Shown one piece after another: positions 2,022 to 27,805 of a stretch of 35,187 nucleotides of DNA; position 1 is the first letter of the stretch, and every line of letters begins with the position of its first letter. Source of the stretch: Bacteroidales bacterium (GTDB taxonomy: Bacteria; Bacteroidota; Bacteroidia; Bacteroidales; CAIWKO01). A program made the position numbers and the translations under genes. A model generated the notes under the pieces. It saw only the letters and a list, made by a program, of their open reading frames with translations. It was not told where the DNA came from and ran no database searches. The DNA is taken from contig DAOORA010000048.1 of NCBI GenBank assembly GCA_035389045.1, forward strand, positions 1 to 35,187. The letters run 5' to 3'.

Positions 2022-2041
2022 CTATAAATTATTTATGTTGT

Positions 2042-2755: not shown

Positions 2756-2766
2756 AACACCGATGT

Positions 2767-3408
2767 TTAAAGATCTTTTTTAGTTTCTGATATTTCCACC
2801 ATGCTGTTACTTGTCATACATTTCGGACATATTTCATAATAGGTTTCCGATTCAAAACCACAACCTTCGTTACATTTATACCTGCGGTGAATCTGTGCAT
2901 CAGCCTGTTCGCTGACAGCGCCCGTCATTTCAGCATTTCCACTTTCTTCGTACTGGTATTGCACCAGAAAAGCCTCTTTGCCAAGAAATAGGATGCTGTT
3001 GTTTTCTATCCTCTGCGGCTCTTTTGAACAATCAATTTTATTCACGCCATAAAATGTACCGTTCAGTGAGCCTTCGTCCTTCAGATAATACTGGCCGTCA
3101 ACAAGTTTTACCGAGCAGTGTTTTCTGCTGATGACATTTTTTCCGTTGACAATAATTCCTGAAAGCAATTGCGATCCGGTATTTTCCCGGCCCAGAATGC
3201 AGTATGGCCCGTCAATTACAATCGTCCCGGAATTTTGCTGATATATCAGTTTTAATCCGCACAACGTTCCCTTACTTTCATCAGTAACTTCTTCAGACAC
3301 CACAGTATCATCAAAGGTTGTGAAACAAAAAGAACACTCCGCCGGCCTGGATTCGGCCTTTTCAAAAAGGTTTGTATTGGAACAGTTCGGACAAATGATC
3401 TGAAACAT
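2767..3408 (-). CDS. FHA-domain protein with N- and C-terminal Zn-ribbon motifs
   Basis: FHA signature LGR...ISRKH...GSLNGTF. CPNC/CSFC at the N-terminus and CNEGC/CPKC at the C-terminus. Confidence 0.9.
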   Translation of the reverse strand: MFQIICPNCSNTNLFEKAESRPAECSFCFTTFDDTVVSEEVTDESKGTLCGLKLIYQQNSGTIVIDGPYCILGRENTGSQLLSGIIVNGKNVISRKHCSVKLVDGQYYLKDEGSLNGTFYGVNKIDCSKEPQRIENNSILFLGKEAFLVQYQYEESGNAEMTGAVSEQADAQIHRRYKCNEGCGFESETYYEICPKCMTSNSMVEISETKKDL

Positions 3409-3422
3409 AATATCAACAATAT

Positions 3423-4037
3423 TTATACTATTCGAAAACCGGGTTTAACAGATGACAAATTAGTTACCATTGTTTCTATTTCGCCTTTGGCAGGTATGCC
3501 GGCCATGTACACAACATCTCTCTCAATATTCAGCGACCATTTTTTATCAGGATCCGCCATATCAACTTTACGGGCTTTATGTTCAGCGATCTGGTATACC
3601 GATTGGTTTCCCGACCCCTTCAAAGAACTGTTTGACGGCAGGTTTTGTTCATAACGGCCGTCGATGATATAATCCAGGCAGTTCATGAATGACTTATCAG
3701 GAAACATCTGCTCCAGTTCCGGTAAATAATATCCTGTATAACAAAGGAGGTTCAGCGCCGTTCTGCGTTTTATCATCGACGCAAAAACCATAAGTTGCGG
3801 GTACTGATCGAACGGTTCCCCTCCGGTGATGGTAATACCATCATAATCCCTGCAGATTTCACTGGCCATCTGTGTTACAGAGAGCATATCCAGTGATTTT
3901 CCATTGTTTTCGGGCCAGGTGGATTTATTGATACAGCCCGGGCAACAGATCGAACAGCCCTGCACCCATATCCCCAGTCTTTTTCCGGGGCCAAGATTAT
4001 AAACAGGGTACTGAATTTTATTCAGTTGCCATTTCAT
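3423..4037 (-). CDS. Radical SAM 4Fe-4S protein, NrdG/activase-like
   Basis: GPGKRLGIWVQG-CSICCPGC (CxxxCxxC), GITITGGEPFDQ, YTGY, IDGRY and GSGNQ. Its start overlaps the ATPase stop (ATGA). Confidence 0.88.
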   Translation of the reverse strand: MKWQLNKIQYPVYNLGPGKRLGIWVQGCSICCPGCINKSTWPENNGKSLDMLSVTQMASEICRDYDGITITGGEPFDQYPQLMVFASMIKRRTALNLLCYTGYYLPELEQMFPDKSFMNCLDYIIDGRYEQNLPSNSSLKGSGNQSVYQIAEHKARKVDMADPDKKWSLNIERDVVYMAGIPAKGEIETMVTNLSSVKPGFRIV

Positions 4038-5890: not shown

Positions 5891-5891
5891 G

Positions 5892-7427: not shown

Positions 7428-7464
7428 ATATCTTTTTATCCCCCTGTTAATTACTAAAAATCAG

Positions 7465-9672
7465 TTATTTGATGTTTTGAAGCAGGATCAACAATACCAT
7501 TGCCAGTGATAACACGAAGGCTGCTATGAATATACTATTGTTCAGCATGAAGTTTTTTTTATGCCGGGCAATAAACAATTTTTTTGCAGCTTCCAGAGAT
7601 TCTTCGGAAAAATTGATGTCTTTATGTTCTTCTTTTACAAAACTTAAAAACGATTGAGCGGCAGGATTTGCAAACATCATGTTTTTGGCTGTATATATGA
7701 ATCCCTCCTTTACCCTGAATGGAAATTTTTCCTGTATGCCTTTTTGTTTCAGATAGGCGTCAAGGGTGCTGACGATTGAATAATGAACATGGCATACTTT
7801 TTCAAATGCAATATATTCAGGGTGAATTTCAGATTCAGCATATTTTGAAAGCACACCGCCGACAAGGTCCGGAAGTTCAGTATTGACAAGCCCCGCCATG
7901 TTAAAAACTTTCAGCAGTGTATTTCTTTCAAAGGTATGATAACGGTCACGAAAAAGGTCTTTGTTTTTTAAATAAAAAATAGTCAGTTCTTCAGCGGACC
8001 TGATGGGTTTATCCGCATTATCAGGATAAGCTCTTTCATTGTTGAACGAATAGAACAACTGTATCATGTACTGATAATTTGGCTGTGCCTTGTTAGGGAA
8101 AATCTGGGCCGGCAGAAAGGTACGGAAGTCAAATTCATCAGCAATATGAATGACGGAGGAAGCGGGATTATAGAGTTTATTTAACAGAGCCGGAATAGTT
8201 TTATTTTCCGGGTTCAGGTAATGCAATACTTTTAAACTGTATTCCAACTGAAAAAAGTATTTTGACAACATATCGTGCCCGGTAAACCGGTATACGCTGT
8301 CAATTTTACCCATATAATTCTTTACAACACCGGCGACATTATCCGTATCGCTGAAAGAATAACTTGTGTTTTCGATTTTCAGCGGGCGCTGAGGCAGCAG
8401 AAACATCGTTACGGCGGCCTGCAGTATAGTTTTTCCGGAAAGCCGGTATATGCTGACCAGTTTTTCAAAACGTTTACGTTCAGGAATACCGATATAGTCG
8501 TCAAGCCAGTCCTTTACCAGCTTGTACACTTCGGGGTCTTCAAAAAAATCCTGAAACCAGGATGACTTCGATTCTATGTAACGGATGAATTCTTCAGCGG
8601 TAGAAATCACAACCGGTCCTATTTCCAGCGGTTTTGTATCAGAAGATTCTTTCATGCGGTATGACACATGGACATCTTCGCCCTTCAGCCATTTTTCCAC
8701 CTCTGTGGCTCCCCAGCGGTTCTGGTGATTGACCAGGGTAAGGCCTTCAATAATTGAGTTCAATCGCTTGAGCGAAGGGTCAAATGTGATGATGGGGACA
8801 AGGTTGTATTGCCGTTCGACGATTTCTTCAAATTTGTCTTTGTCTATTTCACGGTAAAACTTATCCGAAGTCAGCGCTTCCGGGTATACCAGGTGGAGCA
8901 GTACCATGCCGAATGAATAGTAATCATTTTTTTCTGATACTATGCCTCTGGCCTGTTCCGGCGGAAGATAGAATTCCGTTCCTTTGATCGTGGTTGATTT
9001 ACGTAATTCTTTCTCGGATTTCAGATCATAGGCCTTGGCCGAACCATAGTCACCCAGAACAATATCGGTCTGCTCCTTATCTTTATACAGAATATTCCCG
9101 GGTTTCAGGTCGCAGTGGTATATTTTATATTCGTGTAAGCGGGTTATGGCAAGAAACAGTTGAGGAATTATTTCTCCTTCAATAAATCCGGGGGTATACT
9201 TTTTTTTAAAATCCTCCACTTCCAGTATATTGCCTCCTTCGGCAAATTCCGAAATTTCATAGCAATAGTTCCCGCCGTATTTTTCATCCCCTGTGCCATA
9301 ATCAATAAGCCTTAAAATATCCGGGTCGTTAATATTTTTAATCCGTTCAAGCGCCAGGCTGTTGGGCTCTTCAGCCTCATCGTTAAATTCGTAATAAAGT
9401 TTCAATGCATATTTGTTGCCGGAACTATCAGTAATCAAAAAAACATTGGCTTCGCCGGTACCTTCTGAGATAACTCTTTCTACTGTATAATCAACCTGTT
9501 TAAGCCTTATAACTTCACCGGCATGGACACCCTGTGAATTACCGGTCTTTTTGTTTTCATTTGAAGAATATAGGCCGGTCTTTTCCCTCTCTGCATTATT
9601 ATTATAAATACCGGTTTTACTGTTGATATTTTCTTCTGCACCAGTATCAGCATTGTTGTTTTCTTTTTTCAC
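7465..9672 (-). CDS. Hanks-type Ser/Thr protein kinase with a C-terminal TM anchor
   Basis: GTGEANVF, ALKLY, HCDLKPGN, DYG, GTEFYLPPE, DYYSFG and a hydrophobic C-terminus. The start is placed at the in-frame GTG at 9672 (VKKENNN) because the ORF-track start at 9762 overlaps a TATATTTG promoter box. Confidence 0.9.
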   Translation of the reverse strand: MKKENNNADTGAEENINSKTGIYNNNAEREKTGLYSSNENKKTGNSQGVHAGEVIRLKQVDYTVERVISEGTGEANVFLITDSSGNKYALKLYYEFNDEAEEPNSLALERIKNINDPDILRLIDYGTGDEKYGGNYCYEISEFAEGGNILEVEDFKKKYTPGFIEGEIIPQLFLAITRLHEYKIYHCDLKPGNILYKDKEQTDIVLGDYGSAKAYDLKSEKELRKSTTIKGTEFYLPPEQARGIVSEKNDYYSFGMVLLHLVYPEALTSDKFYREIDKDKFEEIVERQYNLVPIITFDPSLKRLNSIIEGLTLVNHQNRWGATEVEKWLKGEDVHVSYRMKESSDTKPLEIGPVVISTAEEFIRYIESKSSWFQDFFEDPEVYKLVKDWLDDYIGIPERKRFEKLVSIYRLSGKTILQAAVTMFLLPQRPLKIENTSYSFSDTDNVAGVVKNYMGKIDSVYRFTGHDMLSKYFFQLEYSLKVLHYLNPENKTIPALLNKLYNPASSVIHIADEFDFRTFLPAQIFPNKAQPNYQYMIQLFYSFNNERAYPDNADKPIRSAEELTIFYLKNKDLFRDRYHTFERNTLLKVFNMAGLVNTELPDLVGGVLSKYAESEIHPEYIAFEKVCHVHYSIVSTLDAYLKQKGIQEKFPFRVKEGFIYTAKNMMFANPAAQSFLSFVKEEHKDINFSEESLEAAKKLFIARHKKNFMLNNSIFIAAFVLSLAMVLLILLQNIK

Positions 9673-9761
9673 CAGATTCTTATTTTGAAATAGTGCTATT
9701 TTCTCAGACCAAATCACACACCTGTGTATTTTTAAGGTATAAGTCGTTTGCTTCCCTGACA

Positions 9762-9769
9762 CAAATATA
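9762..9769 (-). promoter_or_regulatory. Bacteroidota -7 promoter box (TATATTTG) for the kinase operon
   Basis: Matches the TAnnTTTG consensus about 90 nt upstream of the proposed start. Confidence 0.5.
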
Positions 9770-14348: not shown

Positions 14349-14396
14349 AAGAAAAACGTTTTTTTTACAGACATAAAAACGATGTCCAAAAACAAT

Positions 14397-14479
14397 AAAG
14401 TAAAAGCTGCAACGAAGCTTTGTCAATGCCGGAACTAAAAAAGTAAAAGCTGCGAACAGGCTCTGTCAAACCCGAATTT
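14397..14479. repeat. Imperfect 43-bp tandem repeat
   Basis: AAAGTAAAAGCTGC at 14397 and 14440, each followed by a similar GCT(T/C)TGTCAA..CC.GAA tail. Confidence 0.75.
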
Positions 14480-14572
14480 TATTACAAAAAGGGAACAAGA
14501 AGTGAATACCATGGGAATCAAATGGGCGTGCTGATATGGTGCAAAAATGGTGTCAAGATACCCGGAAAATAA

Positions 14573-14605
14573 TAAACCCCTGATCACAGTGGATGCAGGG
14601 GTTTA
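14573..14605 (-). terminator. Hairpin/terminator after the long DUF6266-like gene
   Basis: Stem TAAACCCCTG / CAGGGGTTTA. Confidence 0.65.
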
Positions 14606-14626
14606 AGTTTTTTGGCCTGTTGTTGT

Positions 14627-16066
14627 CTATTTTACCTTTGATGCCAGTTCGTTACCGGCTTTAAATTTCACCACCTTCCGGGGGCGTTTCTTTTCAACTG
14701 AGAAATCATAATCACCATCAATACCGACCACATCAAACTCATTGATGATGGTATTAGCATCCATAAACTGAATTGTGTAAATCTGATTTCGTTGTAATTT
14801 GGAGCAGAAAAACAGAAAGTCGGAGCTGATAACATGTTCTTTTGTTTCACCTGTGGTACTATTTTTTGATATAACCTTATATGGTACAGCCGCAACCAGG
14901 TCGCCGGGGATGAAGTCTTTCAATTCCCCCCAGATTGCGGTATAAGGATGATGAATTTTCACGCTGTCCGGATGTATCAGCCCGTTTTTGAAGAGTAATT
15001 CGCAATATGAAAGAGTGTCCGGATGGTTAAAGCCAAACCTTGTGGCCGTGGTTTTGTTTTTTCCCATTGCATCGGTGATATAATACAGAATATTGAACGG
15101 TTTGTCCTGATCTCCTTCATTGATGGGAATCATGACTGATTGCCCTGAAGCAGGAAATGTATAATTGCCACCATAGCTGTTACCATTGGACACGAGTATC
15201 TGAGGAATAACATTAATCACATCATCGGGATAAAGTTCAGGGAACTTGGTGTAATCATCAATAGATATTTTTAGGTACCAGCCCGTTGCATCCTGGAAAG
15301 TGGTTGCGTGAATGTTTTCCGGTAGGATGATACGTTTTGAGATTTTGAAATCAAAATACACATCATCAATGTTGGCCGTGAAATACGCACCCACAGAGGG
15401 ACTGTTCATGATGTTTGCCGGAATGTACGGCCTGACATCACGCGAAGGATCATTGATGATGTTATAAAATAACATGCCTTCCGACCAGATATTACTGAAG
15501 TCGTAGTTCATCGGCCAGTCGGGAAGACTCTCTTCATGGATGTAAGTAGAGAAGAAATTTTTAAAAGGGAGTTTGCAGATATTGTCGGTATTGAAGGTCG
15601 TATCAATCGGTTTCCTGCCAACAGCGGTCAGCCTGATGGAATTAGGATCAATATCATCCGAGTTGATTAGTGTGTATTCAATGTAAAATTGATTTATAAA
15701 AGGGTCGTAAGCAGCCCGAAGGATCATCGGGGGCACCATGTTGCTACCGGAAAGGAGCATTTCACTGAAAGTGATGTTGCCGGAATCATCCACCAGGGGA
15801 TAGTTTTTCCTGATGGCTTCGGCCCATGCAGTTGACCTGCCGTTCCGGTTCCTGAAGTTCAGGGGGATTACATTGTCTTTGAATGGCTGCAATGCCAGTG
15901 AAAGGTTTTTGATTTTCTGTCGCTGTAGTTGCTGCGCTATTGTGTTTGGGTTTTTTACCATAGGCTGGTATTTTGAAACAGTGATCAGGGAATTCCATTT
16001 CCGGAATACCACGTTGCCGAGTTTCCCTATCGCATCACCGAGAAAGCCATTTTTTACTGTTGCCAT
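14627..16066 (-). CDS. DUF6266-like protein, long paralogue (479 aa)
   Basis: The N-terminus MATVKNGFLGDAIGKLGNVVF...VKNPNTIAQQLQRQK matches the family pattern and the upstream gene, followed by a beta-rich C-terminal extension. Confidence 0.75.
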   Translation of the reverse strand: MATVKNGFLGDAIGKLGNVVFRKWNSLITVSKYQPMVKNPNTIAQQLQRQKIKNLSLALQPFKDNVIPLNFRNRNGRSTAWAEAIRKNYPLVDDSGNITFSEMLLSGSNMVPPMILRAAYDPFINQFYIEYTLINSDDIDPNSIRLTAVGRKPIDTTFNTDNICKLPFKNFFSTYIHEESLPDWPMNYDFSNIWSEGMLFYNIINDPSRDVRPYIPANIMNSPSVGAYFTANIDDVYFDFKISKRIILPENIHATTFQDATGWYLKISIDDYTKFPELYPDDVINVIPQILVSNGNSYGGNYTFPASGQSVMIPINEGDQDKPFNILYYITDAMGKNKTTATRFGFNHPDTLSYCELLFKNGLIHPDSVKIHHPYTAIWGELKDFIPGDLVAAVPYKVISKNSTTGETKEHVISSDFLFFCSKLQRNQIYTIQFMDANTIINEFDVVGIDGDYDFSVEKKRPRKVVKFKAGNELASKVK

Positions 16067-16111
16067 ATTGCTATATTTTAAAGTTTACAATTAAGATGAA
16101 TTATGTGTTAT

Positions 16112-16147
16112 AAAAAAGGACTTACCGTTCAGGATAAGCCCTTTTTT
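16112..16147. terminator. Bidirectional intrinsic terminator between the two DUF6266-like genes
   Basis: AAAAAAGGACTTA...TAAGCCCTTTTTT. Confidence 0.7.
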
Positions 16148-16166
16148 GATAGGTGTTGGAATTTAA

Positions 16167-16811
16167 CTACACAGTTACAACTACAGTCCCGCTGTAAACA
16201 CTGTCGCAGCATTGGTTGCCTGCAGGATTCACAAAGAAGGAATAAACATGAACGGTGTCACCTCCCCAGGCTGCCGGAACTGTCTGGTCATCTGTGCCAG
16301 TCGCTCTTGTTACGGTAGTGGGGCTGAAAAGCCATTCATCCTTGTCCTCGTTATAGCTTGCAACATATAAAAAGTCGTTGTTAGCTTCATCCAGAGGATC
16401 AACAGGAGGAGTCCATGTTCTCTTTACTTTGAGTGCAAGGTCGTTTCCTGCATGGAATGTTACCGTCTTTGTCAGCGGCCCTTTTGCCACTTTCAGCAAA
16501 GAATAGTCAATGACATAATTTCCCGGGGTTCCGGTGATGGCCGTTTTGATGTTGTTTTTGATGAAAACATTGAAGGCTGACATATCAGTTGTCATGTTCT
16601 GAAATGAAACTTTGAGCATGGTCAGCAATCTGCGGCCTTCGGCTACCATCATTGAAAATTTGTTGCGCTGGTTCACCTGGTCGGGTGTTCTGGGGTTCTT
16701 CACCTGGATGGGTTTGGTGCGCATGGTGTTTTTCGAAAACTGTTTCGAGAAAACTGCAGTACCGAATTTCTGTTTGGTTCTGCCGGTGATAGGATTTTGG
16801 ACTATAGCCAT
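16167..16811 (-). CDS. DUF6266-like protein, short paralogue (214 aa)
   Basis: MAIVQNPITGRTKQKFGTAVF...VKNPRTPDQVNQRNKF, SAFNVFIKNN, IDYSLLKVAKG.L, and C-terminal HVYSFF...DSVYSG. Confidence 0.8.
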   Translation of the reverse strand: MAIVQNPITGRTKQKFGTAVFSKQFSKNTMRTKPIQVKNPRTPDQVNQRNKFSMMVAEGRRLLTMLKVSFQNMTTDMSAFNVFIKNNIKTAITGTPGNYVIDYSLLKVAKGPLTKTVTFHAGNDLALKVKRTWTPPVDPLDEANNDFLYVASYNEDKDEWLFSPTTVTRATGTDDQTVPAAWGGDTVHVYSFFVNPAGNQCCDSVYSGTVVVTV

Positions 16812-16932
16812 AATATTAAATTTAGGGGGTTAATAATCGGATTTAGGGTTATTTTTTTAATTTTATAAGCGGCCTTGATACGGAGTTGAAGCGGACTTAA
16901 TACAGTGATCATTTTTATAAATTTATTCTATG

Positions 16933-16940
16933 CAAAAATA
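16933..16940 (-). promoter_or_regulatory. Possible -7 box (TATTTTTG) for the DUF6266-like genes
   Basis: TAnnTTTG match about 120 nt upstream of the ATG; no clear -33 box. Confidence 0.4.
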
Positions 16941-17018
16941 ACGCTAAAAATCCTGAAAAGGTTGGTGGATATGGCTTCCATGTATAATGTTTCAACCGAT
17001 TGCTTTGTTCTGCAAAAT

Positions 17019-17044
17019 AAAAAAGGGAGTAGTGAAACTCCCTT
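17019..17044 (-). terminator. Terminator after the J-domain gene
   Basis: AAGGGAGT-agtgaa-ACTCCCTT with an adjacent A-run. Confidence 0.7.
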
Positions 17045-17050
17045 GTGACT

Positions 17051-17524
17051 TTATGTCAATATGAAACTGTCTTTTCGGTTTTCGATTATATCACTGCCAT
17101 ATTTGCAGCGGATGTATTCGATGGTTTTGGGCTTCTTGTTGGCACTTTTGTAGTCTGGTGGGCGGTAATACCACATAGTCTTTTTTGGTGCGAAATAGAA
17201 GCCCGTTTGTTTTAATTGTGCCCTGTGGGGATAGGTGTTGCCACTCAACCAGATCCAGTTCCCGATTAACTCAATGATGATGCCATCCAGTCCGATAATC
17301 TGGCTGATGATCTCCGGGTACCGGATGAATTCTTCCTGGTCCTGCTCTGACTTTTCCGCAAAGGAAAAGAACGGGTTTTTCATGATGTTTTCATACTGGA
17401 GGTTGATCTCCTGCATGGTTGCCGTATCGCCTCCCCTGTCGGGATGGTGCTGCAGGGCTAATTCTTTGTATCTGCGCTTCACTTCTTCGAGTGTGCAACA
17501 GGTTGAAAAGTACTGTGTTTTCAT
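17051..17524 (-). CDS. Small J-domain (DnaJ-like) protein of mobile-element type
   Basis: LEEVKRRYKELALQHHPDRGGD...MQEIN..YE (HPD motif). Aromatic C-terminal domain GNWIWLSGNTYPHRAQLKQTGFYF..KK.MWY. Confidence 0.85.
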   Translation of the reverse strand: MKTQYFSTCCTLEEVKRRYKELALQHHPDRGGDTATMQEINLQYENIMKNPFFSFAEKSEQDQEEFIRYPEIISQIIGLDGIIIELIGNWIWLSGNTYPHRAQLKQTGFYFAPKKTMWYYRPPDYKSANKKPKTIEYIRCKYGSDIIENRKDSFILT

Positions 17525-18622
17525 GGGTTTTGTTTATAAATTTTGATAACTTTTTCTGAGATTTGCGGCTCGCTGTGCGCTCGCCGCCACATAAAAAAAA
17601 TATATCATTAATGAAACCTTAGGCAGCAAGAAAGCGCGTGTGCAGGCTGAATTTCAAGGTTTTTGCAAAAAAAATACTACCTCCTGCCACTATAAAAAAG
17701 TCCTATAAATGCAGGAGTGTGGAGATTTTTTTTGCAAAACCCGTAGGGCTTGACCTTGCAAGAGCGGTGGCAGCTTAACTTTGCATAAGGTTTTATTAAT
17801 GAACTTCAAAGAAAATCTCTGTGGCATTAGGGTGTATTTTTTCTTTCTCTTCAAGGGTGGTTGGGTGGGGGTTGGTGGTAGCGTTGGCGGTTTTGGCGTG
17901 GTTTTTTGTTGTGTGTCAGGAAAAATAATATAGCTGTCGGAGGTACGGAGCAGCTTTATTATGTGCGGCTGCAAAAGTATAGCGAATGAACTGAGAGGAG
18001 CGTAACCGAGATCAGGTAGCGCAGCGGACTGTCGAGGTGGAGCGGAACGAAGTGAAGGAGCTATGCTTGCAGCAGCATGGCTTTACAAAAACCATGACAA
18101 AACCATTGGGTAAGGGCGCTTGGGATAAAAAAATTACGAAGTACATTATTGGTGCGATGGCAGAAAACTGATGAGGGCTGGCGTAGTTTTGTGCACGTGT
18201 TGCGGGAGCATCGGTGTGCTGAGGGCATAAAATCAGCGGGCGGCATTGGTTGCCACAAAGGAATAAGCTGCAATACCGCCGAAAGGTTTTGTTGGCTTGT
18301 GGGCAAATGCAATTATGAGTGAAATGAACGAAATCGAAATGAAATGTAGTGTTGCTGGAACGAAGTGGAAGCGTTAACGGAATGGAATGGAGATGTAGTG
18401 AATGAACTGATAATGCCATTACGGCGGTGAGTGATGATTTATTATTTTGAGGTTGGATTTATTGCTGCTCATGTATTTGTGTCCGGGAAGGGCTGCACTG
18501 CTGATTTTATTTGGGCGGGGAAACCGATGCTATTGGGTTTGGCAAAAACTATGACAGCCCGAAAATTACCATATCAAAGGGAAGTGTGGGTGGGCTTTTG
18601 TGCAGTGGCGGAGAGTGCGGCT

Positions 18623-18650
18623 ATTTTACATAATAACCATTATAACTGAC
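18623..18650 (-). other. dif/Xer-like recombination site 1
   Basis: Minus strand GTCAGTTATAA-TGGTTA-TTATGTAAAAT has an 11-6-11 layout. The right arm differs by one base from the canonical XerD arm TTATGTTAAAT. Confidence 0.7.
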
Positions 18651-18722
18651 AGGCAGCAACTCTGTCCAGCCTACCCAGCGGCGAAGCTATCGTTTACCTT
18701 ACGACCTGCTGCTTTCGCCTGC

Positions 18723-18750
18723 CTGTTTTATAATGCTTATTATGTTAGAA
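18723..18750 (+). other. dif/Xer-like recombination site 2, inverted relative to site 1
   Basis: CTGTTTTATAA-TGCTTA-TTATGTTAGAA has an 11-6-11 layout with a XerD-like right arm. Confidence 0.65.
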
Positions 18751-19261
18751 TAGCATACGATACTAAATCTTCTAAAATAGCGAATGGCAGACGGGCAAAA
18801 TACGTGGGTGCAAAGAGCATTTTGTCCCGGCTGCCTTAAAAAAATAAATTCATTAATAAAACCTAATTTTGACGACATTCCGGAATGCAAATCTTAGCCA
18901 GCGGAGAATAAATAAAAACGCTGCTCACTTTTTGCCTTTACTTTAAGAATTGTGAAAGGGAACAGGTTTAATTTGAGGAATTAAAGAGCTAAAAAGAGAA
19001 AACTAAGGTTATTTCACAGAAAATAAAAAATATAAGATATTATAAATCAACGCTTAAACCATTTATTTTTAGTTTTTCATTCAATTTTAACTTAAAAAAG
19101 GGGGTTATTTCACGGATTTTCAGAAATAAGGGAATACCTACGAAACTTGCGGCTGCCAATGGGCATAACCTTTTTCTCACTTATAAGTAAATTGAGTTAT
19201 TAGAAAAAAAACGTTAATAAAGTTAAATTATGTTAATAAATACAGCATTTTGTTAATAAAA

Positions 19262-19294
19262 TTTGCTTGTTCTGTCATAATTGTTGTATATTTG
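19262..19294 (+). promoter_or_regulatory. Consensus Bacteroidota promoter facing the 3' end of the DUF3800 operon
   Basis: TTTG (19262-19265)-N21-TATATTTG (19287-19294). Confidence 0.7.
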
Positions 19295-19297
19295 CAC

Positions 19298-19366
19298 TCA
19301 AGTTCATTCTTCATTCGAAGAAAGGAAATCGAAAAACGCAAAGCCTAGATGTTTTGCGTTTTTTGC
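19298..19366 (+). ncRNA. Candidate small RNA of about 65-70 nt
   Basis: It lies between the promoter and a terminator and has no ORF. It contains hairpin TTCTTC-ATTC-GAAGAA, then AAAAACGCAAAGC/GTTTTGCGTTTTT with a T-run. Confidence 0.45.
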
Positions 19367-19368
19367 TT

Positions 19369-19875
19369 TTAAAGAATCTCATTTAGTCTGCGATTATATT
19401 TTTTCATGATCTTATCACGCTTCGCATCCTTGCCTTTCAAATAATAAGCAGTTATCAAGTAGTATGCTGATCTGTCACGCAAAGGCTCAAAAATAATTAC
19501 ATACTTCTCGTCTTTATCATATAAATAAGTCCTTAAACCATCAGGTTCCTTAATTGAAAAAAGATACATATTAGAAGGCTTTCTTTCTTCAATATGGTAC
19601 TTAACCCAGTGCAATCTAACTGAACGATCAAGATCAAATTCCCTTTTTCTGGTGGCTTTATCAATAATAACAGTTGTAAGATGGGTAAATAGTGTTTCCA
19701 TTTTAATAACACCATCAGCAGGAGTGGGAGTAATTTGTTTGCCCTTAAACCTAAAATTCTCATTATTCGCTATATCTCTATTAAATATACCCAATAAAGA
19801 TTGTTTGCGCTGGAAGTCATTATATGTATTTAATTCTAATAAGCTATTATATGTTTTTAATAAATTTAATGGCAT
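19369..19875 (-). CDS. Hypothetical basic protein, possibly a BECR/RelE-like RNase fold
   Basis: Starts 2 nt after the DUF3800 stop. H-x-R-rich core (FTHL...R..D.DRSVRLHW) and a C-terminal YVIIFE...YYLITAYY strand pattern. Confidence 0.7.
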   Translation of the reverse strand: MPLNLLKTYNSLLELNTYNDFQRKQSLLGIFNRDIANNENFRFKGKQITPTPADGVIKMETLFTHLTTVIIDKATRKREFDLDRSVRLHWVKYHIEERKPSNMYLFSIKEPDGLRTYLYDKDEKYVIIFEPLRDRSAYYLITAYYLKGKDAKRDKIMKKYNRRLNEIL

Positions 19876-19877
19876 AG

Positions 19878-20561
19878 CTATCTTAATTCAATAAAAAATA
19901 AATTCAATTTCTTTGAGTGATTTGTGCATGTTAACGATTCCTTACTATGATTTTTTATTTTATCAATAATCTGTATTTTAGCGATATTTTGCTTTTTATC
20001 ATCGTTATGAAAGTATGAAATCGCACCCATCAGAAAATCTGCTAATTGCATTAGTAAACTTTCATAAGAATGGATATTCTGAACATTCCTAAACACTCCA
20101 AATTTTGTATTTAATATATCTTTTAATTTGTTAACTTTTCTTGCACTCAAAGTGTCTTTTATGTCCAGATAGACGTTGTAATTGTATAAGGTATTTATGT
20201 TATGATTAAGTAAATAATAATACATGGTATAATAAAAGTCATCGTAGGTTTTGTTAAAAGCGCCATTATTTATTGTTGATTTATTAATGCCAACAGCTCT
20301 GAATTTAAGATCTGTGGCAAAAAAATAATCAACAAGATCAATATAGAAACGAATTTTAGAAGATGACACGTACGACCATTTAATTTCAGCATAAAAATTA
20401 TGCTTCTTCTTTAAATTCTTAATATTTTCAGTATGTAACCGAACCTGGTTATATGCCGAACTAACTGATCCCAAAAACATAAAAGCCTTATGATCATTTT
20501 CGATATGACAACTTTCATCGCAATATATGTTGAATGTTTTATTTGCTGTTGAATTATTCAT
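19878..20561 (-). CDS. DUF3800 family protein (RNase H-like acidic motifs)
   Basis: NIYCDES, EIKW, VYLD and QLADFLMGA. Confidence 0.85.
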   Translation of the reverse strand: MNNSTANKTFNIYCDESCHIENDHKAFMFLGSVSSAYNQVRLHTENIKNLKKKHNFYAEIKWSYVSSSKIRFYIDLVDYFFATDLKFRAVGINKSTINNGAFNKTYDDFYYTMYYYLLNHNINTLYNYNVYLDIKDTLSARKVNKLKDILNTKFGVFRNVQNIHSYESLLMQLADFLMGAISYFHNDDKKQNIAKIQIIDKIKNHSKESLTCTNHSKKLNLFFIELR

Positions 20562-20642
20562 ATAAGCAATTTATTTTTGTGAGTTAAAAAGAAGATTCAT
20601 GTGGGGGAATTAATCAAATAATAAAACAATAAATTTTTTAAT

Positions 20643-22064
20643 CTAAATAACTCTGATTTCAGGCATTTCATCTGAAAATTCTTCATCTATCAAGTGTATC
20701 TGGTTTCGGACAATCTGACGTTTTTCAAGCGCCGGCTTTAAGCAGAATTCATTAAAATCTTCTTTGCTGATGTCGGAGGAACTGTTTACATTCGGAAACA
20801 ACAGTTTTAAGTAAGCCGTCGCAATTCTTTTTACTGCGGTAGTGTCCCGAGTGTCGGCCTTTGCCGGAACATCAATCAAATCATTGACAATAGTAGAATA
20901 AACCGGATTATCACGAAGTTCATGCATTATTTCTGAAAAATACTCAACATTTAATGTCCATCCGTTAATTTTTAGGTTTTCATTAATACGAGGTAATTTC
21001 CAACCTTCAATGAAGCCATGAAAACGATCAAGGAGGGCTGATTCCCGGAATGTTTCTGGCAATTCCACAAAATATTTGGATTTGACGGGTTTTTTATCAC
21101 TGGTTAAAGTAATATTACCCATAATAATAAGACCTGCCTGAGAAATAAGCTTCACATTGGCAACTGTTGTGTAACCGAATTCAAGATAACTTTTAAGGGC
21201 TGCCTGTATTTCTGTTGCATCGGAAAAAGTTATTGTCTGAATTTCATCCATGGTAACAAAGTCATATAGAGTGATTGCGCCCATCGACTTTTTTGTCATG
21301 TCATAAAACAGTTTTGCCCGCGTGACCTTGCCACCGCTAATCATCCAACCATATTTACTAAGGTTCCCGAAAATATAAGATTTGCCTGTACCCTTAGGTG
21401 CTAGTTCAATTAAATTCAGCCGGGGCTCAATAAATATCAGAATTCTGCTCAGGAACATAAGTTTCTGAGATAGAGAATCAAAACCATCAGGATTATATTC
21501 CATCGATCGAATAAGAAGATCAATCCATTCTATGATGTTAAAGTCTTTTCGAGCATTTCTGAAATAATCCAAATCAACTTTATATGGTTTAAAAGCCTTA
21601 TAGTTTACCAACTCAACATAACCTTTCTCATGATCATCGGGTGGCTGATAAACCAAAGTAACAACGCCCCAAATTTCACCATCCTTTAATTCTTTATTCT
21701 TTTTGGCTACATGTTCCGGAATTCTCCCTTCATTTGACTTAATGCCTAAATCTGGAATAGAAAAAAGCATTCGGTCGTTTTTCAAATCTGTTTCAACGAT
21801 AAATCTCGTCAGAACAACAACCTGTTCTCTATAAGTCCGCAGGCGATTTTTCAAATCATTATCCTTACCAGGAATATGGTTTTCTAAAAATTTCAGTACA
21901 CCATCCCGATCAAGATTACCGTATGAATCTGTGTATTTTTTAACCAGGTAATCTTTAATAAAAGATGGCAGATTCTTACCAACAAAAACACTATAATTCT
22001 GAGGTGTTTTTATTACTGATTCATCAGGAAATGCCTGTTTTATTTTTTCGTCTAATGTGCTCAA
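20643..22064 (-). CDS. brxL: BREX BrxL AAA+ ATPase without an evident Lon protease domain
   Basis: EWIDLLIRSM, NLIELAPKGTGKS, DEIQ, ESALLDRFHGFIEGW and RD..AVKR. Its start overlaps the pglZ stop. Confidence 0.88.
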   Translation of the reverse strand: MSTLDEKIKQAFPDESVIKTPQNYSVFVGKNLPSFIKDYLVKKYTDSYGNLDRDGVLKFLENHIPGKDNDLKNRLRTYREQVVVLTRFIVETDLKNDRMLFSIPDLGIKSNEGRIPEHVAKKNKELKDGEIWGVVTLVYQPPDDHEKGYVELVNYKAFKPYKVDLDYFRNARKDFNIIEWIDLLIRSMEYNPDGFDSLSQKLMFLSRILIFIEPRLNLIELAPKGTGKSYIFGNLSKYGWMISGGKVTRAKLFYDMTKKSMGAITLYDFVTMDEIQTITFSDATEIQAALKSYLEFGYTTVANVKLISQAGLIIMGNITLTSDKKPVKSKYFVELPETFRESALLDRFHGFIEGWKLPRINENLKINGWTLNVEYFSEIMHELRDNPVYSTIVNDLIDVPAKADTRDTTAVKRIATAYLKLLFPNVNSSSDISKEDFNEFCLKPALEKRQIVRNQIHLIDEEFSDEMPEIRVI

Positions 22065-24406
22065 AATAAGTCCTCCTCAATTAAACCGGATTTGATATTT
22101 ATAGTGAAAGATTTTTCAAAATTATCAACAAGAACTGCCACAGACAACTCTCCCGATAATGATTTATCCATGATAATTTCCCACTTATGGGTGTTATTAT
22201 TAAAATTAAGTTTTTGTTTTTTGCCTGAAAACTTCAAATAAGCATTCTGAGGCTTCGGCATTATAGTAAATGAAAGCAAGGGTTCTTTTTTCGAAATCTC
22301 AGTTTTTTCGATGGTAACTGAATAATCAATTTGGTTGGTGTCTTTTTTGTTGGAAATAATAAGTAAGGGAACCAGCACTTCCTCAGGGGTACATCCACCA
22401 TGAGCCTCCCTTATTGGCTTTTTACCTAAAGAATTGTGTTTTAGCGCAATTAAATATTCCTTTTGGTCAATATCAGATTTGTGGTAAATGTAATCAGAAT
22501 CCTGAGTATGTTCATTACCCTTTACCTCTATGAAACGCCCCTCATGACTATCTTCCTTGCCATATTTCTTAGAAGAGGCAAGTCTTGATAAAGCAGTTAA
22601 TCCGTGGTCTGAAACCAAAGCATATGTTTGATTTGAATCGAGAATAAGGCATGAATTCAATATGCGCTTTATCTCTTCCATTTCTTTAATTAACAGATCA
22701 GGATAAGAATATGTATTATTATGAATGAAAGAATCAAAATCCTGTATGTATTTAGCATCTGAAAAACGATTATGCTCAGTACTTGTCGGTAAATTAGCAA
22801 CGCCAACAAGTTTTTTAACAATCCTCAAATCTTTATTAGCCTGAGTTAGGTAATTTTCGATAAATGACACCCATTCGATTCCCAGGGCATCAATCCATAT
22901 CACCTTATCAACCTTGTTTGTATGCAATATGCTGTGTAACGATTCAAAGCTATGATACCAGTTATAAAACGAATCACTATTACCATTAAATTCTAATAAT
23001 ATTTTGTTCAGATTATCTGAAACCTTATCGCTCAGTTTAGATTTTTTATATTCAGCCAAATATTCATAAATCCATTCTTGGTTTTTACTAGTATTATCAA
23101 ATATGCTGGATGAAATATAATTAGCAATATCAGGGAATCTTTGGGATAACAATTCGTAATCAGATATTTCATTACTTACAAATAATGCAAAAATGAATTC
23201 TTTTTCGAACTGAAAACATCCTGTACAAACCATTAAGGCAAGGTTTTTATCGGGCAGTTCTTTAATTTTGTTCTTTAACTCGTTTATTACATCATCACTT
23301 AAGTTAGCAGATTTAAGGCATTCGTATTGTTTAATTAAATTTAATCGCTCACTTATAAACGACTCTTTCGTATCAAGTGAAAAGATGGCCAAAAACAAAT
23401 ACTTTAATAGAGTGTGATCTGTGTAGTCGGGTAAAGATATAAGAACCTTTGAAAGATATGTCTGTTTTAAAGAATCATTAGACACAACAAAATGCTGTAA
23501 TAACCATTTATCAAATTCATTGTCTGACTTTAACCAAAAATCAAGAAAATTATTCTGTGTTATAGAAACAACATTAAAATGTTTTTTTACACAATCAGTA
23601 AAGGTCGTAAAATCTTTATTTATTAGTGATGATAGCTTTTCCCAATGATTATTATCCTTAATAATAAAAGGAACAGGAATTACTTTATTTAAAACCTTTT
23701 CAATTAGGTTTTTAATGTTTTCAAATTTCTCAATAAAAAAAATTGAATCCGGTAAGGTATTATTATAAAAAATATTCAGCGGCTTTGAATAACAAATCAC
23801 ATCACAGGGGCTCTTTTTCTTCCAAAATTTTAACCATTCTTCTGTGTTGGGGATTGTTTCAATATCCATTAATTTCCCTGCTATTTTATCAGCTGATAAA
23901 AAAACTTTTATTGAATTGGGAGTTTCATTAGAAATCTTCCAAAAAGGGGCAGATTCTTCACTACGGGTAAAATCCTGAAAAAAATCTTTTTCAAACCTTT
24001 GTTCAATACCAATCAATGGTAAATAAATACGGCGTGAAATATCTGAATTTTCAATCAAAAGCACTTGATGAAAGAAATTGCTTAATTCTGGAGATGAATA
24101 GAACCGTACCAATTCGGAAAAAGGTACTATGGCCGTATCAACATTAATATTTTTTACAATATTTATAAGGGAATCTTTGGTTATCCATCCATCAGGGTGA
24201 GGTAACTCTCTTTCAATATGACATATATTAATTCCAATTTTATCCAGCCTTTCAATAAGCGCTCTGAAGGTCTCGAATCTTTGCAAAAAAATTAATCTTA
24301 CCGGATAGCGATTTGATAATATATTGCGAGTATGCTTGTCTGATTCAATTTCAGAAACTAAATCATCAAGGTTACTAAACTCTTTTATTTTATCGACTAA
24401 TTTCAT
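22061..24406 (-). CDS. pglZ: BREX type 4 PglZ alkaline-phosphatase-fold protein
   Basis: WIDALGIEW, LPTST, SDHG, HEGR and HGGCTPEEVLVP. Confidence 0.88.
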   Translation of the reverse strand: MKLVDKIKEFSNLDDLVSEIESDKHTRNILSNRYPVRLIFLQRFETFRALIERLDKIGINICHIERELPHPDGWITKDSLINIVKNINVDTAIVPFSELVRFYSSPELSNFFHQVLLIENSDISRRIYLPLIGIEQRFEKDFFQDFTRSEESAPFWKISNETPNSIKVFLSADKIAGKLMDIETIPNTEEWLKFWKKKSPCDVICYSKPLNIFYNNTLPDSIFFIEKFENIKNLIEKVLNKVIPVPFIIKDNNHWEKLSSLINKDFTTFTDCVKKHFNVVSITQNNFLDFWLKSDNEFDKWLLQHFVVSNDSLKQTYLSKVLISLPDYTDHTLLKYLFLAIFSLDTKESFISERLNLIKQYECLKSANLSDDVINELKNKIKELPDKNLALMVCTGCFQFEKEFIFALFVSNEISDYELLSQRFPDIANYISSSIFDNTSKNQEWIYEYLAEYKKSKLSDKVSDNLNKILLEFNGNSDSFYNWYHSFESLHSILHTNKVDKVIWIDALGIEWVSFIENYLTQANKDLRIVKKLVGVANLPTSTEHNRFSDAKYIQDFDSFIHNNTYSYPDLLIKEMEEIKRILNSCLILDSNQTYALVSDHGLTALSRLASSKKYGKEDSHEGRFIEVKGNEHTQDSDYIYHKSDIDQKEYLIALKHNSLGKKPIREAHGGCTPEEVLVPLLIISNKKDTNQIDYSVTIEKTEISKKEPLLSFTIMPKPQNAYLKFSGKKQKLNFNNNTHKWEIIMDKSLSGELSVAVLVDNFEKSFTINIKSGLIEEDLF

Positions 24407-24414
24407 AAAAGTCG

Positions 24415-27400
24415 TTAATTAAAATACTTATCAATCAAACTCAAAAATTGAGGATTTTCTTCAAGAAACTGAATAATTCTATTTTTCAGCTCATTTTCTC
24501 CACGATTGAAGCTCCTGACCTTATCAATAGTTTTTTTACCACCATTTGCAGGACCGTTTGGTGGAATAACAGGAGGTATATCCGGGCCTGAGCCACTCGG
24601 AGTATCATTTGGCGGCGAAGGTTGGGATTTATTACGTTTATCCCACTGGTACACTTTTAATTTCACACCATCCTCTTTCCAAAGACCAATTTCCTCCTGC
24701 ATATTTGAAATCAAATACTCATTTATTTCATCAAAGTTATCTTCAGAAAAAACAATGTCGTCATCAACCGACTGTAAAAATGAAAGGAAACCACTTCGGA
24801 AATTCTCAGGCTTAAGAATCAATTTTAAATCCACACGGGCATCTTTAATCTTATTCAATACACTTGATATCAACTTAACATCAATCTCATTTGTAGCATT
24901 GTATAACAATTTCAACAACTCATCAATAGCAATGGAAATATTATTATCAACCGAATTATATTTTAATGCCCACAGGGGGAATTTTGCTGTAGTCTTAACA
25001 TAATTGACTATTGCCCAGCGAGTATCAGTAATACTATTAAAATCTTTCAGGTCAAACAATTCAAAAAGAATTTTCTTTAACTCTCTTTCTTCTTTTGAAC
25101 CGAACCTGACATTTAACTTATTTTGATTTCTATTATCCTGCCAATAAGAGAATATATGCCCTATCAAATCCCTCATTTCGTCGTTTGCAATTGGACGGCC
25201 AACATCTGCAACATAAAGTTCTCCAACATATTTTCTCATAGCATAACCCATAAGGGCCATGTTGGGCATATTTGTATATACCCCATAGGGGGCTTCCGTC
25301 AAAAACCTCAATTCATCACCAATATTGAAAACAGGGCGAAGTTTTAGTTTTGACATTTTTTCATCAATCTCATCTTGTATGATTTTAAGGGTATGATTCG
25401 GATCACATTCTGATTTTATTAGAAGGTTGTCAGAAATAATATATTCACCCTCCTTATCTTTGACTATAGACTTTAAATAAGTATTTGGGCCACTTGAAGT
25501 CTTTTCCTCTAATTCAGTCCGGTCATCAGCATTAATAAATATCTCGGCTGATTTAATAGCAGCCTGAAATTTCCAAATATTTGCGTTACGAAATAATTCA
25601 GGAATATTGTCAATACCTTTTGAAAATATAATCGGACAAATTAACGTATTAATAAAACCGCCCACCTGATTAGCAAGGTGCTTTTCATCTTTATCCCTGA
25701 AAATAACCTGCACATATCTTGTTCTGATTCTAGTAAACCATTCTTCCACCTGACCTTTTGCGTAATTTTCGAAATTTGTTGATTGTTCCTCATAACTATG
25801 ATTATCACTAACCTGCTTTCTTGCCATGAAATCAATAAATTTCTCGTAGTTCTTTTCAGAAAAAGGTTCTTCAATTATTGTAAATATCACATTCTGAAAA
25901 TCATCATCCAAAGCAAAATCTTTTAATTTGGGCAATGCGGTCAATTGATCATAATCACCATTTGATAAAAACACTGCACATTTTAAGGAGTAGGGCTTAT
26001 TAAATGCCTTTGAAAGACGGTTTCGAAGAACATGCTCATTTTCAATATTGGCTGAGAAGAGAGCTATTTCAGATTCTCGATATATATTTTCTTTAAAAAT
26101 AAATTTTTCAATATCGCCATCAACTTTTGCATATTTTAGTACTGAAATTAAATCTTTAAACTGATTTCTAATATCCTCCTTTGCTTGTTCAATTTCCCTA
26201 ACCGGAAGAGAATAAAATTCAATAAGGTAGTCACCAGCAGGTGTTTTAGTAACAATACCATTTTCATCAATAAAAAACAATATATCTTCCAATTCATTTT
26301 CAAAACCAGAGCCAATAAAAAGAGATAAGATATTTTCAGAAGATGGGGTTATTGGACTAGCTTCTTCACCAGAAACATCAATCACCTTAAACAGAATATT
26401 CAGCAATAAAATACCTTTAAAAACTTTGGTGTAATTCTCCCCTTTTTCTTCAACCCTTTGAATATTCAGGCGATATTTGTCTAATACCTGATTGAATCTG
26501 CCTTCCTGATCGTTTTCAAAAGCTTCAACAAAAAAGTCCCATAAATAATCCGGTGTGAGCATGGGACTACCAGTTAGCTCTTTTTCTAAAAAATTTAAAA
26601 ATCCTAGTTCCTTATCATATAGAAACCCAAAAATACTTCTGTTGGTTGAACCCAAATTTCGTGCAATAAATGTTGAAAGATAAGCGGAATATGGATGAAT
26701 GGGAAAAAGGTCTTTTATTCTTGTTTTAGTAGCTGAACCATTATTATTTGTGAGCTTGCTTATCAATTCATCCCAAAGAGAAGAGTTATCAAATACTTCG
26801 CTTTGAAATTTACGCCATTTTACGGTGTCAATTTTCTTAATTGATGCACCCATAATGTGGTACGTTGTTATAGGTTCCATACGATATGAAATTATATGGA
26901 ATCTATCATTCATACGGGATAAATCTTCTTTTGGAATTGAATGTTGATGAGGTGTCCTATGGCTTATCAAATATAAAAAAATGTTATTTTTTTCGCTTAA
27001 TTCAGCAATATTCTGTATTTGATTTATTATACCTGAACTGATGGAATCCATGACAGAGGTAAATTCATCCCAAAAAATCATTATACCTTTTGCCTTGTTT
27101 TGGGCAATCAATTCCTTGTTAATTTCAACAAGCCATTTGGTAATATCCTCATGAGAAAAATGAACACCTTCCTTACTAAGGGTGCTTTCTATGACATTGA
27201 AAAAATCAATATCATAGGAATTAAGCTTTTTTAATATGTCGTTTTTATTTGAGACATATATGCTTAGTTCCTCATGTTTTTTAATAAGCAAATCCCAATC
27301 AATTAGAGGACTATTTACCTGTTCAATCATCCTTTCGAAATCACTTGTAGTAACAATACCCAAGTCATTAAACCCAGGAGAAGTTCTTATGGCTTTTTCA

Positions 27401-27798
27401 ATCTGCAGCGTAAAAGTTCTGCTGTTAGAAATACCTCCCAGTCCTTTTAAAACCACCGGGAAAAGTTTGTTTTTATTTCTATAATTAATGAGCTTGGCTC
27501 TCAAATTAATATCATCAATGTTTTCATGAATATATGGCTTTACTTCATCAAAATCATCAAAAAGAAGATGCTTAATTACAGAAGCAGCGTGACTCTTACC
27601 TGTGCCAAAAGTACCCTGAATCCAGATTGACTTTCTTTGACTTGGCTCGTTAGTGTCTATTGCTGAAAGCGTTTTTTTTAATACCTCATAAAACTGATCA
27701 TTGGGAATAAACTGTTTCCAATAATTTATTGTTTCATTTTCAATGTTAAATACAGGATGAAAATATTCCTGTAACTCAATAATTTTTGAATATTTCAT
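24415..27798 (-). CDS. brxC: BREX BrxC-like P-loop ATPase
   Basis: WIQGTFGTGKSH, IFWDEF, FPIHPY and RSIF.FL. The start is moved to the ATG at 27798 (MKYSKII), just after the brxP stop. Confidence 0.85.
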   Translation of the reverse strand: MKYSKIIELQEYFHPVFNIENETINYWKQFIPNDQFYEVLKKTLSAIDTNEPSQRKSIWIQGTFGTGKSHAASVIKHLLFDDFDEVKPYIHENIDDINLRAKLINYRNKNKLFPVVLKGLGGISNSRTFTLQIEKAIRTSPGFNDLGIVTTSDFERMIEQVNSPLIDWDLLIKKHEELSIYVSNKNDILKKLNSYDIDFFNVIESTLSKEGVHFSHEDITKWLVEINKELIAQNKAKGIMIFWDEFTSVMDSISSGIINQIQNIAELSEKNNIFLYLISHRTPHQHSIPKEDLSRMNDRFHIISYRMEPITTYHIMGASIKKIDTVKWRKFQSEVFDNSSLWDELISKLTNNNGSATKTRIKDLFPIHPYSAYLSTFIARNLGSTNRSIFGFLYDKELGFLNFLEKELTGSPMLTPDYLWDFFVEAFENDQEGRFNQVLDKYRLNIQRVEEKGENYTKVFKGILLLNILFKVIDVSGEEASPITPSSENILSLFIGSGFENELEDILFFIDENGIVTKTPAGDYLIEFYSLPVREIEQAKEDIRNQFKDLISVLKYAKVDGDIEKFIFKENIYRESEIALFSANIENEHVLRNRLSKAFNKPYSLKCAVFLSNGDYDQLTALPKLKDFALDDDFQNVIFTIIEEPFSEKNYEKFIDFMARKQVSDNHSYEEQSTNFENYAKGQVEEWFTRIRTRYVQVIFRDKDEKHLANQVGGFINTLICPIIFSKGIDNIPELFRNANIWKFQAAIKSAEIFINADDRTELEEKTSSGPNTYLKSIVKDKEGEYIISDNLLIKSECDPNHTLKIIQDEIDEKMSKLKLRPVFNIGDELRFLTEAPYGVYTNMPNMALMGYAMRKYVGELYVADVGRPIANDEMRDLIGHIFSYWQDNRNQNKLNVRFGSKEERELKKILFELFDLKDFNSITDTRWAIVNYVKTTAKFPLWALKYNSVDNNISIAIDELLKLLYNATNEIDVKLISSVLNKIKDARVDLKLILKPENFRSGFLSFLQSVDDDIVFSEDNFDEINEYLISNMQEEIGLWKEDGVKLKVYQWDKRNKSQPSPPNDTPSGSGPDIPPVIPPNGPANGGKKTIDKVRSFNRGENELKNRIIQFLEENPQFLSLIDKYFN

Positions 27799-27805
27799 GA
27801 CAACT

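Follow-up and report, generated by a model that had tools for sequence, protein, structure and literature searches.

The DNA analysed here, a 35,187-nucleotide stretch of contig DAOORA010000048.1 from a Bacteroidales bacterium (GCA_035389045.1) that is called the window throughout, carries at 17605-17802 on the + strand a long imperfect fold-back hairpin, H1, next to a leftward gene for a J-domain protein, J (17051-17524, - strand). The structure of H1 is under selection, and the + strand, which is the template strand of J, is the one that folds. Our preferred reading, which we hold with about even confidence, is that H1 would serve as a Frpo-like fold-back promoter on single-stranded DNA (ssDNA), and possibly also as a start for primer RNA, built on the primary-sigma consensus of Bacteroidota. 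An earlier note, made from the letters of this DNA, had proposed a single-strand promoter of this type for J, and its interpretation is partly supported by the comparisons described below.

H1 was delimited by DNA folding and by an alignment of 35 sequences. The outer arms, which the earlier note had paired with one G-T, lie at 17605-17625 and 17782-17802 (21 nt, 90% complementary); ATGAAACC faces GGTTTTAT, with one G.T position on the + strand. The inner arms that it had named correspond to 17658-17675 and 17725-17742 (18 nt, 94% complementary), and the apical stem CTCCTGC/GCAGGAG that it had drawn is paired in the minimum-energy fold, which also contains a middle stem joining 17652-17665 (TTTCAAGGTTTTTG) to the CCTTGCAA side and an A/T-rich inner stem at 17667-17681/17725-17740. 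When 17585-17825 was folded as ssDNA, the + strand reached -46.3 kcal/mol (z -5.69), and none of 200 dinucleotide shuffles (-26.2 +/- 3.5 kcal/mol) was as good. Within 1.3 kb of non-coding DNA, H1 is the part that is conserved best, with a column identity of 0.83-0.94 across 14 copies against about 0.5-0.6 elsewhere. It is not a miniature inverted-repeat transposable element in the window's own genome (G000) because it has a single copy there; such an element, or a dispersed palindromic repeat, was ruled out on this ground together with the tie of H1 to its partner gene J. A known structured RNA family was also rejected, as Rfam 15 held no relevant covariance model for 17400-19500 at E values up to 1, and only two tRNAs in the window reached the gathering score.

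A pattern search based on the right arm identified 30 hairpins among 120 metagenome loci (an earlier genome-wide pattern scan was too loose, and only three of the loci that it fetched were real). The metagenome hairpins and the genome copies together gave 35 distinct hairpins, for which RNAalifold produced a consensus of 43 pairs. The earlier note had suggested covariation as a check, and the arms do covary: 11 of the 43 pairs, representing 54 cells, show compensatory changes on both sides. In the consensus 96.9% of cells are paired; none of 500 shuffled controls was as high in pairing and covariation, and pairing falls to 41-65% when the partner is moved by 1-3 columns. The covariation sits in the inner stems, and the outer stem (helix 1) is conserved in sequence without two-sided changes. 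Wobbles read as G.T on the + strand occupy 50 cells in 10 pairs, compared with 5 cells in 5 pairs for A.C, and the + strand is the more stable in 34 of the 35 hairpins (-38.8 versus -33.7 kcal/mol). The excess of G.T and the stability of the + strand therefore identify the folding strand as the template strand of J.

The same asymmetry contradicts an explanation in which H1 would act as RNA, as a folded part of a long 5′ leader of the J mRNA, transcribed from a distant promoter or as part of an operon, because the wobbles would be A.C in RNA of the - strand. That strand of 17585-17825 does fold (-43.0 kcal/mol, z -5.64), and minus-strand open reading frames (ORFs) are found upstream of the hairpin in some copies (L295); however, it is the less stable strand in all but one of the aligned hairpins, and no conserved sense promoter lies within 1.4 kb of J. 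We consider a leader of this kind very improbable.

The right arm has the same layout in all 35 hairpins: CCTTGCAAG (CCTTGCA), 17 nt, and then TAnCTTTG. In the window the TTG of the -33 element is at 17756-17758 within the invariant CCTTGCAAG and pairs with TTGCAAGG of the left arm (helix 4), the G-rich spacer of the GAGCGGTGGCAGC type is at 17759-17775, and the -7 box TAACTTTG is at 17776-17783, all on the + strand; the box is where the earlier note had placed it. The usual -33/-7 spacing in Bacteroidota is about 19. TTG-N17-TAACTTTG fits the pattern of the Bacteroidota primary sigma factor (-7 TAnnTTTG with -33 TTTG or TTG), of which TTG and TAnnTTTG are given as the Bacteroides consensus boxes in the relevant part of PMC7366714. 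The -7 motif alone is not rarer than chance, as TANNTTTG occurs 49 times in the window against 47.7 expected; its weight comes from its occupying the same place on the right arm in 35 of 35 distinct hairpins.

The pairing state of these elements is equally constant: in all 35 hairpins the -33 TTG is paired, and the -7 box is so in part. The spacer lies opposite a G-rich part of the left arm (about 17634-17651) that is likewise conserved, and the two form a conserved internal loop of about 13 x 15 nt, with zero consensus pairs and both sides kept in sequence. In the -7 box the first T and the last TG are paired in the consensus fold and the middle A-n-C-T-T is unpaired, which may be read as a pre-melted bubble, and the 17-20 nt past the box are fully paired.

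The earlier note had reasoned that, once the + strand folds, the right arm would become the non-template strand and polymerase would pass down the left arm into J, and for the mapped arms this geometry is right. The template side of the outer stem is 17605-17625; judging by the place of the -7 box and the register of the pairing, the leftward, - strand transcript would start at about 17615-17622, and its putative leader would be 17525-17604, up to the ATG at 17524. The + strand between hairpin and gene (17563-17604) consists of a small GC hairpin (17563-17588) and a conserved A-run, CATAAAAAAAATATA (17589-17604), with column identities of 0.62 and 0.83, respectively. J itself encodes 157 amino acids with an HPD motif (PF00226, 26.6 bits, just below the cut-off of 27.8), and its C-terminal domain is common to small "DnaJ" proteins of plasmids and phages (phrog_15863, E 9e-38).

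The link between H1 and J is a fixed one. In all 22 hairpin loci whose left flank reaches 470 nt or more, J lies at the same distance, and it points leftward on the opposite strand in 27 of 27 J-bearing metagenome loci and in 15 of 15 genome copies. The hairpin and J persist even where, in 6 of 13 copies, the right-hand 1 kb aligns to that of the window no better than a shuffled control. An ordinary promoter for J in double-stranded DNA (dsDNA), which the earlier note had named as a finding that would count against it, was not found in conserved form in the 1.4 kb upstream: a J-sense TAnnTTTG is absent from these 1400 nt in 10 of the 15 genome copies, and in the other five it occurs at non-homologous places. 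As an internal control, a sense-strand box precedes the DUF6266 gene in 8 of 11 copies. The exception to the link is a third module copy in the sister genome G002 (L334; G002:C41, about 5300-5800), where the hairpin is kept at 93% identity and J has recently been replaced by a small hydrophobic ORF; the replacing ORF brings its own sense-strand TAAATTTG. The obligate link to J, the variable right flank and the lack of a conserved J promoter favour leftward use of H1.

A possible mechanism can be proposed from these features. When the + strand is single-stranded, 17605-17802 would snap into a hairpin of about 200 nt, whose stem would restore a duplex -33 element and a duplex start region, while the -7 box would stay partly unpaired, as in an open complex, and the A/T-rich inner stem would occupy the position of an UP element. 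RNA polymerase could then bind, start in the outer stem at about 17615-17622 of the template, open the last 12-17 bp and read leftward along the single + strand into J, perhaps onward into the DUF6266 genes. Once the complementary strand is made, the promoter would face the other way and expression of J would stop. Both the use of H1 by polymerase and the existence of a single-stranded stage (conjugative entry, an excised or rolling-circle intermediate, or replication) are inferred from sequence.

The DNA to the right of H1 suggests a different use for the same boxes. It contains three rod-like hairpins, A (17889-18104), B (18175-18560) and C (18604-18773), and a covarying terminal hairpin (18789-18836), all on the + strand. 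Across 12 sequences this region has an alifold energy of -324 on the + strand against -255 on the - strand, G.U in 234 cells against A.C in 28, and 81 pairs with compensatory change. These hairpins could be either folded ssDNA signals or a new structured RNA of about 1 kb made from the H1 promoter; in our judgement, rods of 100-190 bp resemble folded DNA signals more than known large RNAs. The main rival to a single-strand promoter is accordingly an ordinary dsDNA promoter, in which TTG-N17-TAACTTTG would fire rightward and drive a + strand transcript (17790 to about 18840) that folds into A, B and C, with the left arm as a regulatory or cruciform-forming complement and J expressed in some other way. 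In favour of such a promoter, the boxes are intact in duplex DNA, the DNA downstream lacks a conserved ORF and has the strong + strand structure just given, and at locus L303 a + strand ORF begins about 190 nt past the box.

Contigs from two true RNA runs, which show neither strand nor ends, touch the DUF6266 genes, 16941-17091 and 18249-18450, and the last of these, from one run, would fit a rightward transcript (weakly, as DNA carry-over is possible); one run also has a joint 14613>17831, supported by no more than 21 letters. The comparative evidence is harder to reconcile with a rightward promoter. The left arm would not be transcribed, yet it and the right arm covary; conservation is higher in H1 than in the putative RNA, and the right-hand kilobase drops to the level of the shuffled control in the six copies mentioned above while the hairpin and J stay. 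No Rfam family matches such an RNA, and J would be left without a conserved promoter. We regard the rightward promoter as unlikely, although it is the strongest of the alternatives.

Several features of the right-hand region stand apart from these arguments. A conserved G-rich box, GGGTGGTTGGGTGGGGGTTGGTGG, which may form a G-quadruplex, lies at 17855-17878 on the + strand, some 75 nt to the right of the -7 box; the window and loci L003, L007, L030, L034 and L037, several of them diverged elsewhere, have it in identical form, and it is near-identical in L017. Hairpins A and B have common base motifs (GGCGTG..TTTTTG / CAAAAACCATGAC), and in locus L015 both contain the same insertion of about 22 nt. 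The right-terminal 130 nt or so (18715-18846) consist of a covarying 48-nt hairpin and an A-run, and this unit occurs alone between housekeeping genes at G002:C20, G002:C42, G003:C47 and G014:C146, and in part at G000:C103. A role as an attachment site is not supported for 18715-18846, which is a dispersed intergenic repeat instead. No ORF of 17525-18846 is conserved across 14 copies, so that a hidden gene was not found; the long minus-strand frames there were rejected as genes because they are not conserved, and they fit a pyrimidine-rich strand.

The closest known systems are Frpo1 and Frpo2 of F and ssi of ColIb-P9, in the leading regions of IncF and IncI1 plasmids. As described in the parts of PMC9849209 and PMC11541004 concerned, a long stem-loop of one strand rebuilds the host promoter boxes and serves, as the folded strand, as template for the gene that follows; in dsDNA the promoter no longer works for this gene, and the element heads establishment genes. 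H1 would resemble them in these respects, its boxes being rebuilt perhaps only in part, J with ssb in a Capnocytophaga plasmid (see below) corresponding to ssb in F. H1 differs in its boxes, which are -33 TTG and -7 TAnnTTTG rather than -35 and -10, in its spacer, and in its carrier, a chromosomal module of 4.4 kb without transfer genes rather than a plasmid leading region. There is no sequence homology to Frpo or ssi, and blastn of 17560-17900 against 72,556 plasmid records gave no match. H1 is thus outside the Frpo sequence family and would be the same kind of device in the promoter code of another phylum. The Frpo logic of the earlier note is supported by the covarying arms, the folding strand and the invariant boxes on the right arm, but not by the spacer, which is an internal loop and not a duplex.

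A second comparison is with invertible promoters, which are common between inverted repeats in Bacteroidales (PMC8748976 and PMC4747536). These are like H1 in having TAnnTTTG between inverted repeats and facing away from the gene in the state seen. If H1 were one of them, its 21-nt outer repeats would be recombinase sites and a flip of the 156-bp core would turn the promoter to J (ON), all copies seen being OFF. The -7 box abuts the right repeat and would read out through the left repeat after a flip, and the sequence conservation of the outer stem without two-sided changes would also fit. However, none of 42 copies is flipped (15 genome and 27 metagenome copies, the metagenome pattern being biased to the state found), and DNA contigs, which drop minor variants, contain no strand-changing joint at the repeats. 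Terminal repeats would suffice for inversion, yet 31 of the 43 pairs lie inside them, which is where the covariation falls; the whole segment is self-complementary, and there is no recombinase gene in the module or nearby. We think it improbable that H1 is an invertible promoter.

Homologues of J are genes typical of conjugative plasmids. Among 2638 plasmid records with a match to the J protein, 2199 are typed as conjugative and 290 as mobilizable. In an IncX4 plasmid J heads a row of small genes that point at taxA-taxC, and the IncX oriT is located just before taxA. J lies near RadC and an AcrIIA9-family gene in a Clostridium plasmid and near an orphan methylase in an Acinetobacter plasmid; its context in an Enterococcus plasmid is uninformative. 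Distant J genes in Bacteroidota genomes are followed by RadC or stand beside ParA, tyrosine recombinases, a UmuC fragment or restriction-modification genes. Such neighbourhoods match the leading-region descriptions in the part of PMC11541004 that deals with them, and DnaJ and Bacteroidota are not mentioned in the text of that paper, supplements aside.

The most informative of these homologues is on the Capnocytophaga conjugative plasmid NZ_CP027230, which has transfer genes of the Bacteroidota type, all on one strand, in the order J, ssb, ParA, a toprim protein, a DUF5712 protein, the coupling protein and the tra genes. The 1.4-kb gap before J holds a 200-nt hairpin (record positions about 4494-4699; -55.5 kcal/mol, z -10.95) that is unrelated to H1 in sequence and carries TTG-N19-TACCTTTG on the arm equivalent to the right arm of H1. 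Its -33 element, its spacer and the stem after the box are paired, and the -7 box is within an internal loop of 8 x 8. A fold-back promoter at the head of establishment genes would be expected to have this design. Among 17 distant J loci, the design was found at four (L023, L026, L033 and L318). The hairpin of L023 looks like a diverged relative of H1, and those of L026 and L033 form one family, so that there are three sequence classes in all. At one more locus, L025, the motif is near the gene but unpaired.

H1 is carried by a module of 4.44 kb (14404-18846) that, from comparison of its copies, travels as a unit. Of 401 genomes sampled from the order, 19 contain J homologues, some of them in as many as four copies. 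Several observations about this carrier and about J elsewhere weigh against H1 acting as a single-strand promoter. The module has no recognisable relaxase, oriT, Rep, integrase or transposase, and in the sister genome G002 it sits at two sites between ordinary chromosomal housekeeping genes, flanked by TPR proteins and an iron-uptake operon at one and by a tRNA and a metal-efflux operon at the other. A placement in a plasmid leading region near oriT is not supported for the H1 module; such a setting was found only for the analogous hairpin of NZ_CP027230. Neither TraN (PF13595) nor Relaxase (PF03432) had a match in genomes G000, G002 and G183, which is not proof of absence, as the search covered two families and the genomes are about 96% complete; the fourth genome, G132, has a single TraN, on a different contig from the module. 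A conjugative single-stranded stage is therefore hypothetical for the module.

To these must be added that the promoter is intact in dsDNA, where it faces about 1 kb of covarying + strand structure that is possibly an RNA, and that the two true RNA runs, represented by patchy contigs only, have no cover over H1. In the hairpin family of the window the 17-nt spacer between the boxes is unpaired, unlike the duplex stem described for Frpo. The Capnocytophaga J also has an ordinary sense-strand TATATTTG 33 nt upstream, 12 of the 17 distant J loci are without such a hairpin motif, and the 1.4 kb before J in the IncX4 plasmid contain no sigma-70 -35/-10 pair by a simple pattern that allowed one mismatch per box.

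The structural and + strand evidence would be the same if H1 were a folded single-strand site with another job, such as an origin for priming the complementary strand or a recombination or nicking site of the module, with any effect on J being incidental. In filamentous-phage minus-strand origins and in ssoA of rolling-circle plasmids, a folded single strand mimics a promoter for host RNA polymerase. H1 is the first of five consecutive long hairpins of the same strand, as might be expected of a strand that is primed or handled while single, and the module, which carries no recombinase, spreads to several sites in a genome. The genome of the window has eight matches to HUH Y1 transposases. On the other hand, origins that depend on RNA polymerase make a short primer and have no partner gene, whereas H1 has a gene at a fixed distance in every copy, and J is constant in both orientation and distance although a site of this kind needs no such partner. 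Only H1 among the five + strand hairpins carries the sigma consensus. Subfamilies of the module differ at its ends, where neither a shared terminal motif nor a target duplication was found. Priming and gene expression are also not mutually exclusive, and Frpo is said, in the title of a 1997 paper by Masai and Arai, to do both. We consider it distinctly unlikely that H1 has such a job and no direct role for J.

The remainder of the module contains, on the - strand, a gene for a 479-aa DUF6266-like protein (14627-16066) and a DUF6266 gene of 214 aa (16167-16811), and other copies have one to three extra genes of about 150 aa. The model of the short DUF6266 protein has two helices and an FN3/Ig-like sandwich (pLDDT 73), and its best matches in the PDB are fibronectin type III domains (E about 2e-4); the predicted fold says nothing about mobility. 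The two DUF6266 proteins have a common basic N-terminus that is probably disordered, their Atlas neighbours include phage proteins fused to Flg_new/Big_2 domains, and no paper on DUF6266 was found in a literature search that did not cover subscription journals. An ssDNA virus was rejected as the source of the module, since there is no Rep gene, the DUF6266 model is not a jelly-roll capsid and no H1-type hairpin was present in 13 viral-contig pattern matches. The label of integrase for the ORF at 33755-35065 was dropped because it had no Pfam match, and no orthologous uninterrupted (empty) site was found within the genus.

Before the DUF6266 gene, 16812-17050 contains two or three tandem 11-nt units (..TCCGTATCAAG..) that are conserved in 11 module copies and lie downstream of an ordinary sense-strand -7 box; they might serve as an operator, as iterons or as a leader motif. 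At its left end (14394-14474) the module has a 43-nt tandem duplication, and both copies contain small hairpins with GAA-type loops, of the GCAACGAAGC / GCTGCGAACAGGC type. Outside the module, 19369-30352 is a defence-type block of low GC content (28-34%), entirely on the - strand, with an unknown 168-aa protein, DUF3800, a BrxL-like Lon ATPase, two large proteins without Pfam match (781 and 1152 aa), an 848-aa PAPS-reductase/4Fe-4S protein and then DUF6965, a DUF3987/BT4734-N primase-like protein and an HTH_17 protein. A - strand signalling cluster at 480-9762 encodes a Ser/Thr protein kinase (765 aa), a ClpB-like AAA protein, a radical-SAM/4Fe-4S protein, an FHA and zinc-ribbon protein, a PP2C phosphatase and two proteins without family.

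Single-strand promoters are how conjugative plasmids express anti-defence and establishment genes before becoming double-stranded. In the parts of PMC11541004 and PMC9849209 that describe them, they are known for sigma-70 boxes only, and the candidate searches there were built on TTGACA/TATAAT and are therefore blind to other phyla; to date the device has been demonstrated only on plasmids of the E. coli type. No paper on a single-stranded DNA promoter in Bacteroid- organisms was found, as judged by titles and the starts of abstracts, with subscription journals not covered. We propose, more tentatively than the role of H1 itself, that the mobile DNA of Bacteroidota may have its own class of single-strand-only promoter, in which a long hairpin would rebuild a -33 TTG and offer a pre-melted -7 TAnnTTTG, that a small J-domain protein, recruiting the Hsp70 of the host, may be the first product made from incoming or excised ssDNA, and that the recombinase-less J/DUF6266 modules of 4.4-5.4 kb, with their four further strand-specific hairpins, may live through a single-stranded + stage. 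The cleanest test case would be the Capnocytophaga plasmid, which combines the hairpin with ssb and transfer genes, rather than the window. If H1 is what we suggest, the device would have evolved, or been re-invented, for a sigma factor with different rules, and J-domain proteins would be indicated as early establishment factors. A hairpin with a paired TTG and with TAnnTTTG in a bubble, on the template strand, would then be a search pattern for the early genes of Bacteroidota mobile elements, including the conjugative elements of gut Bacteroidales.

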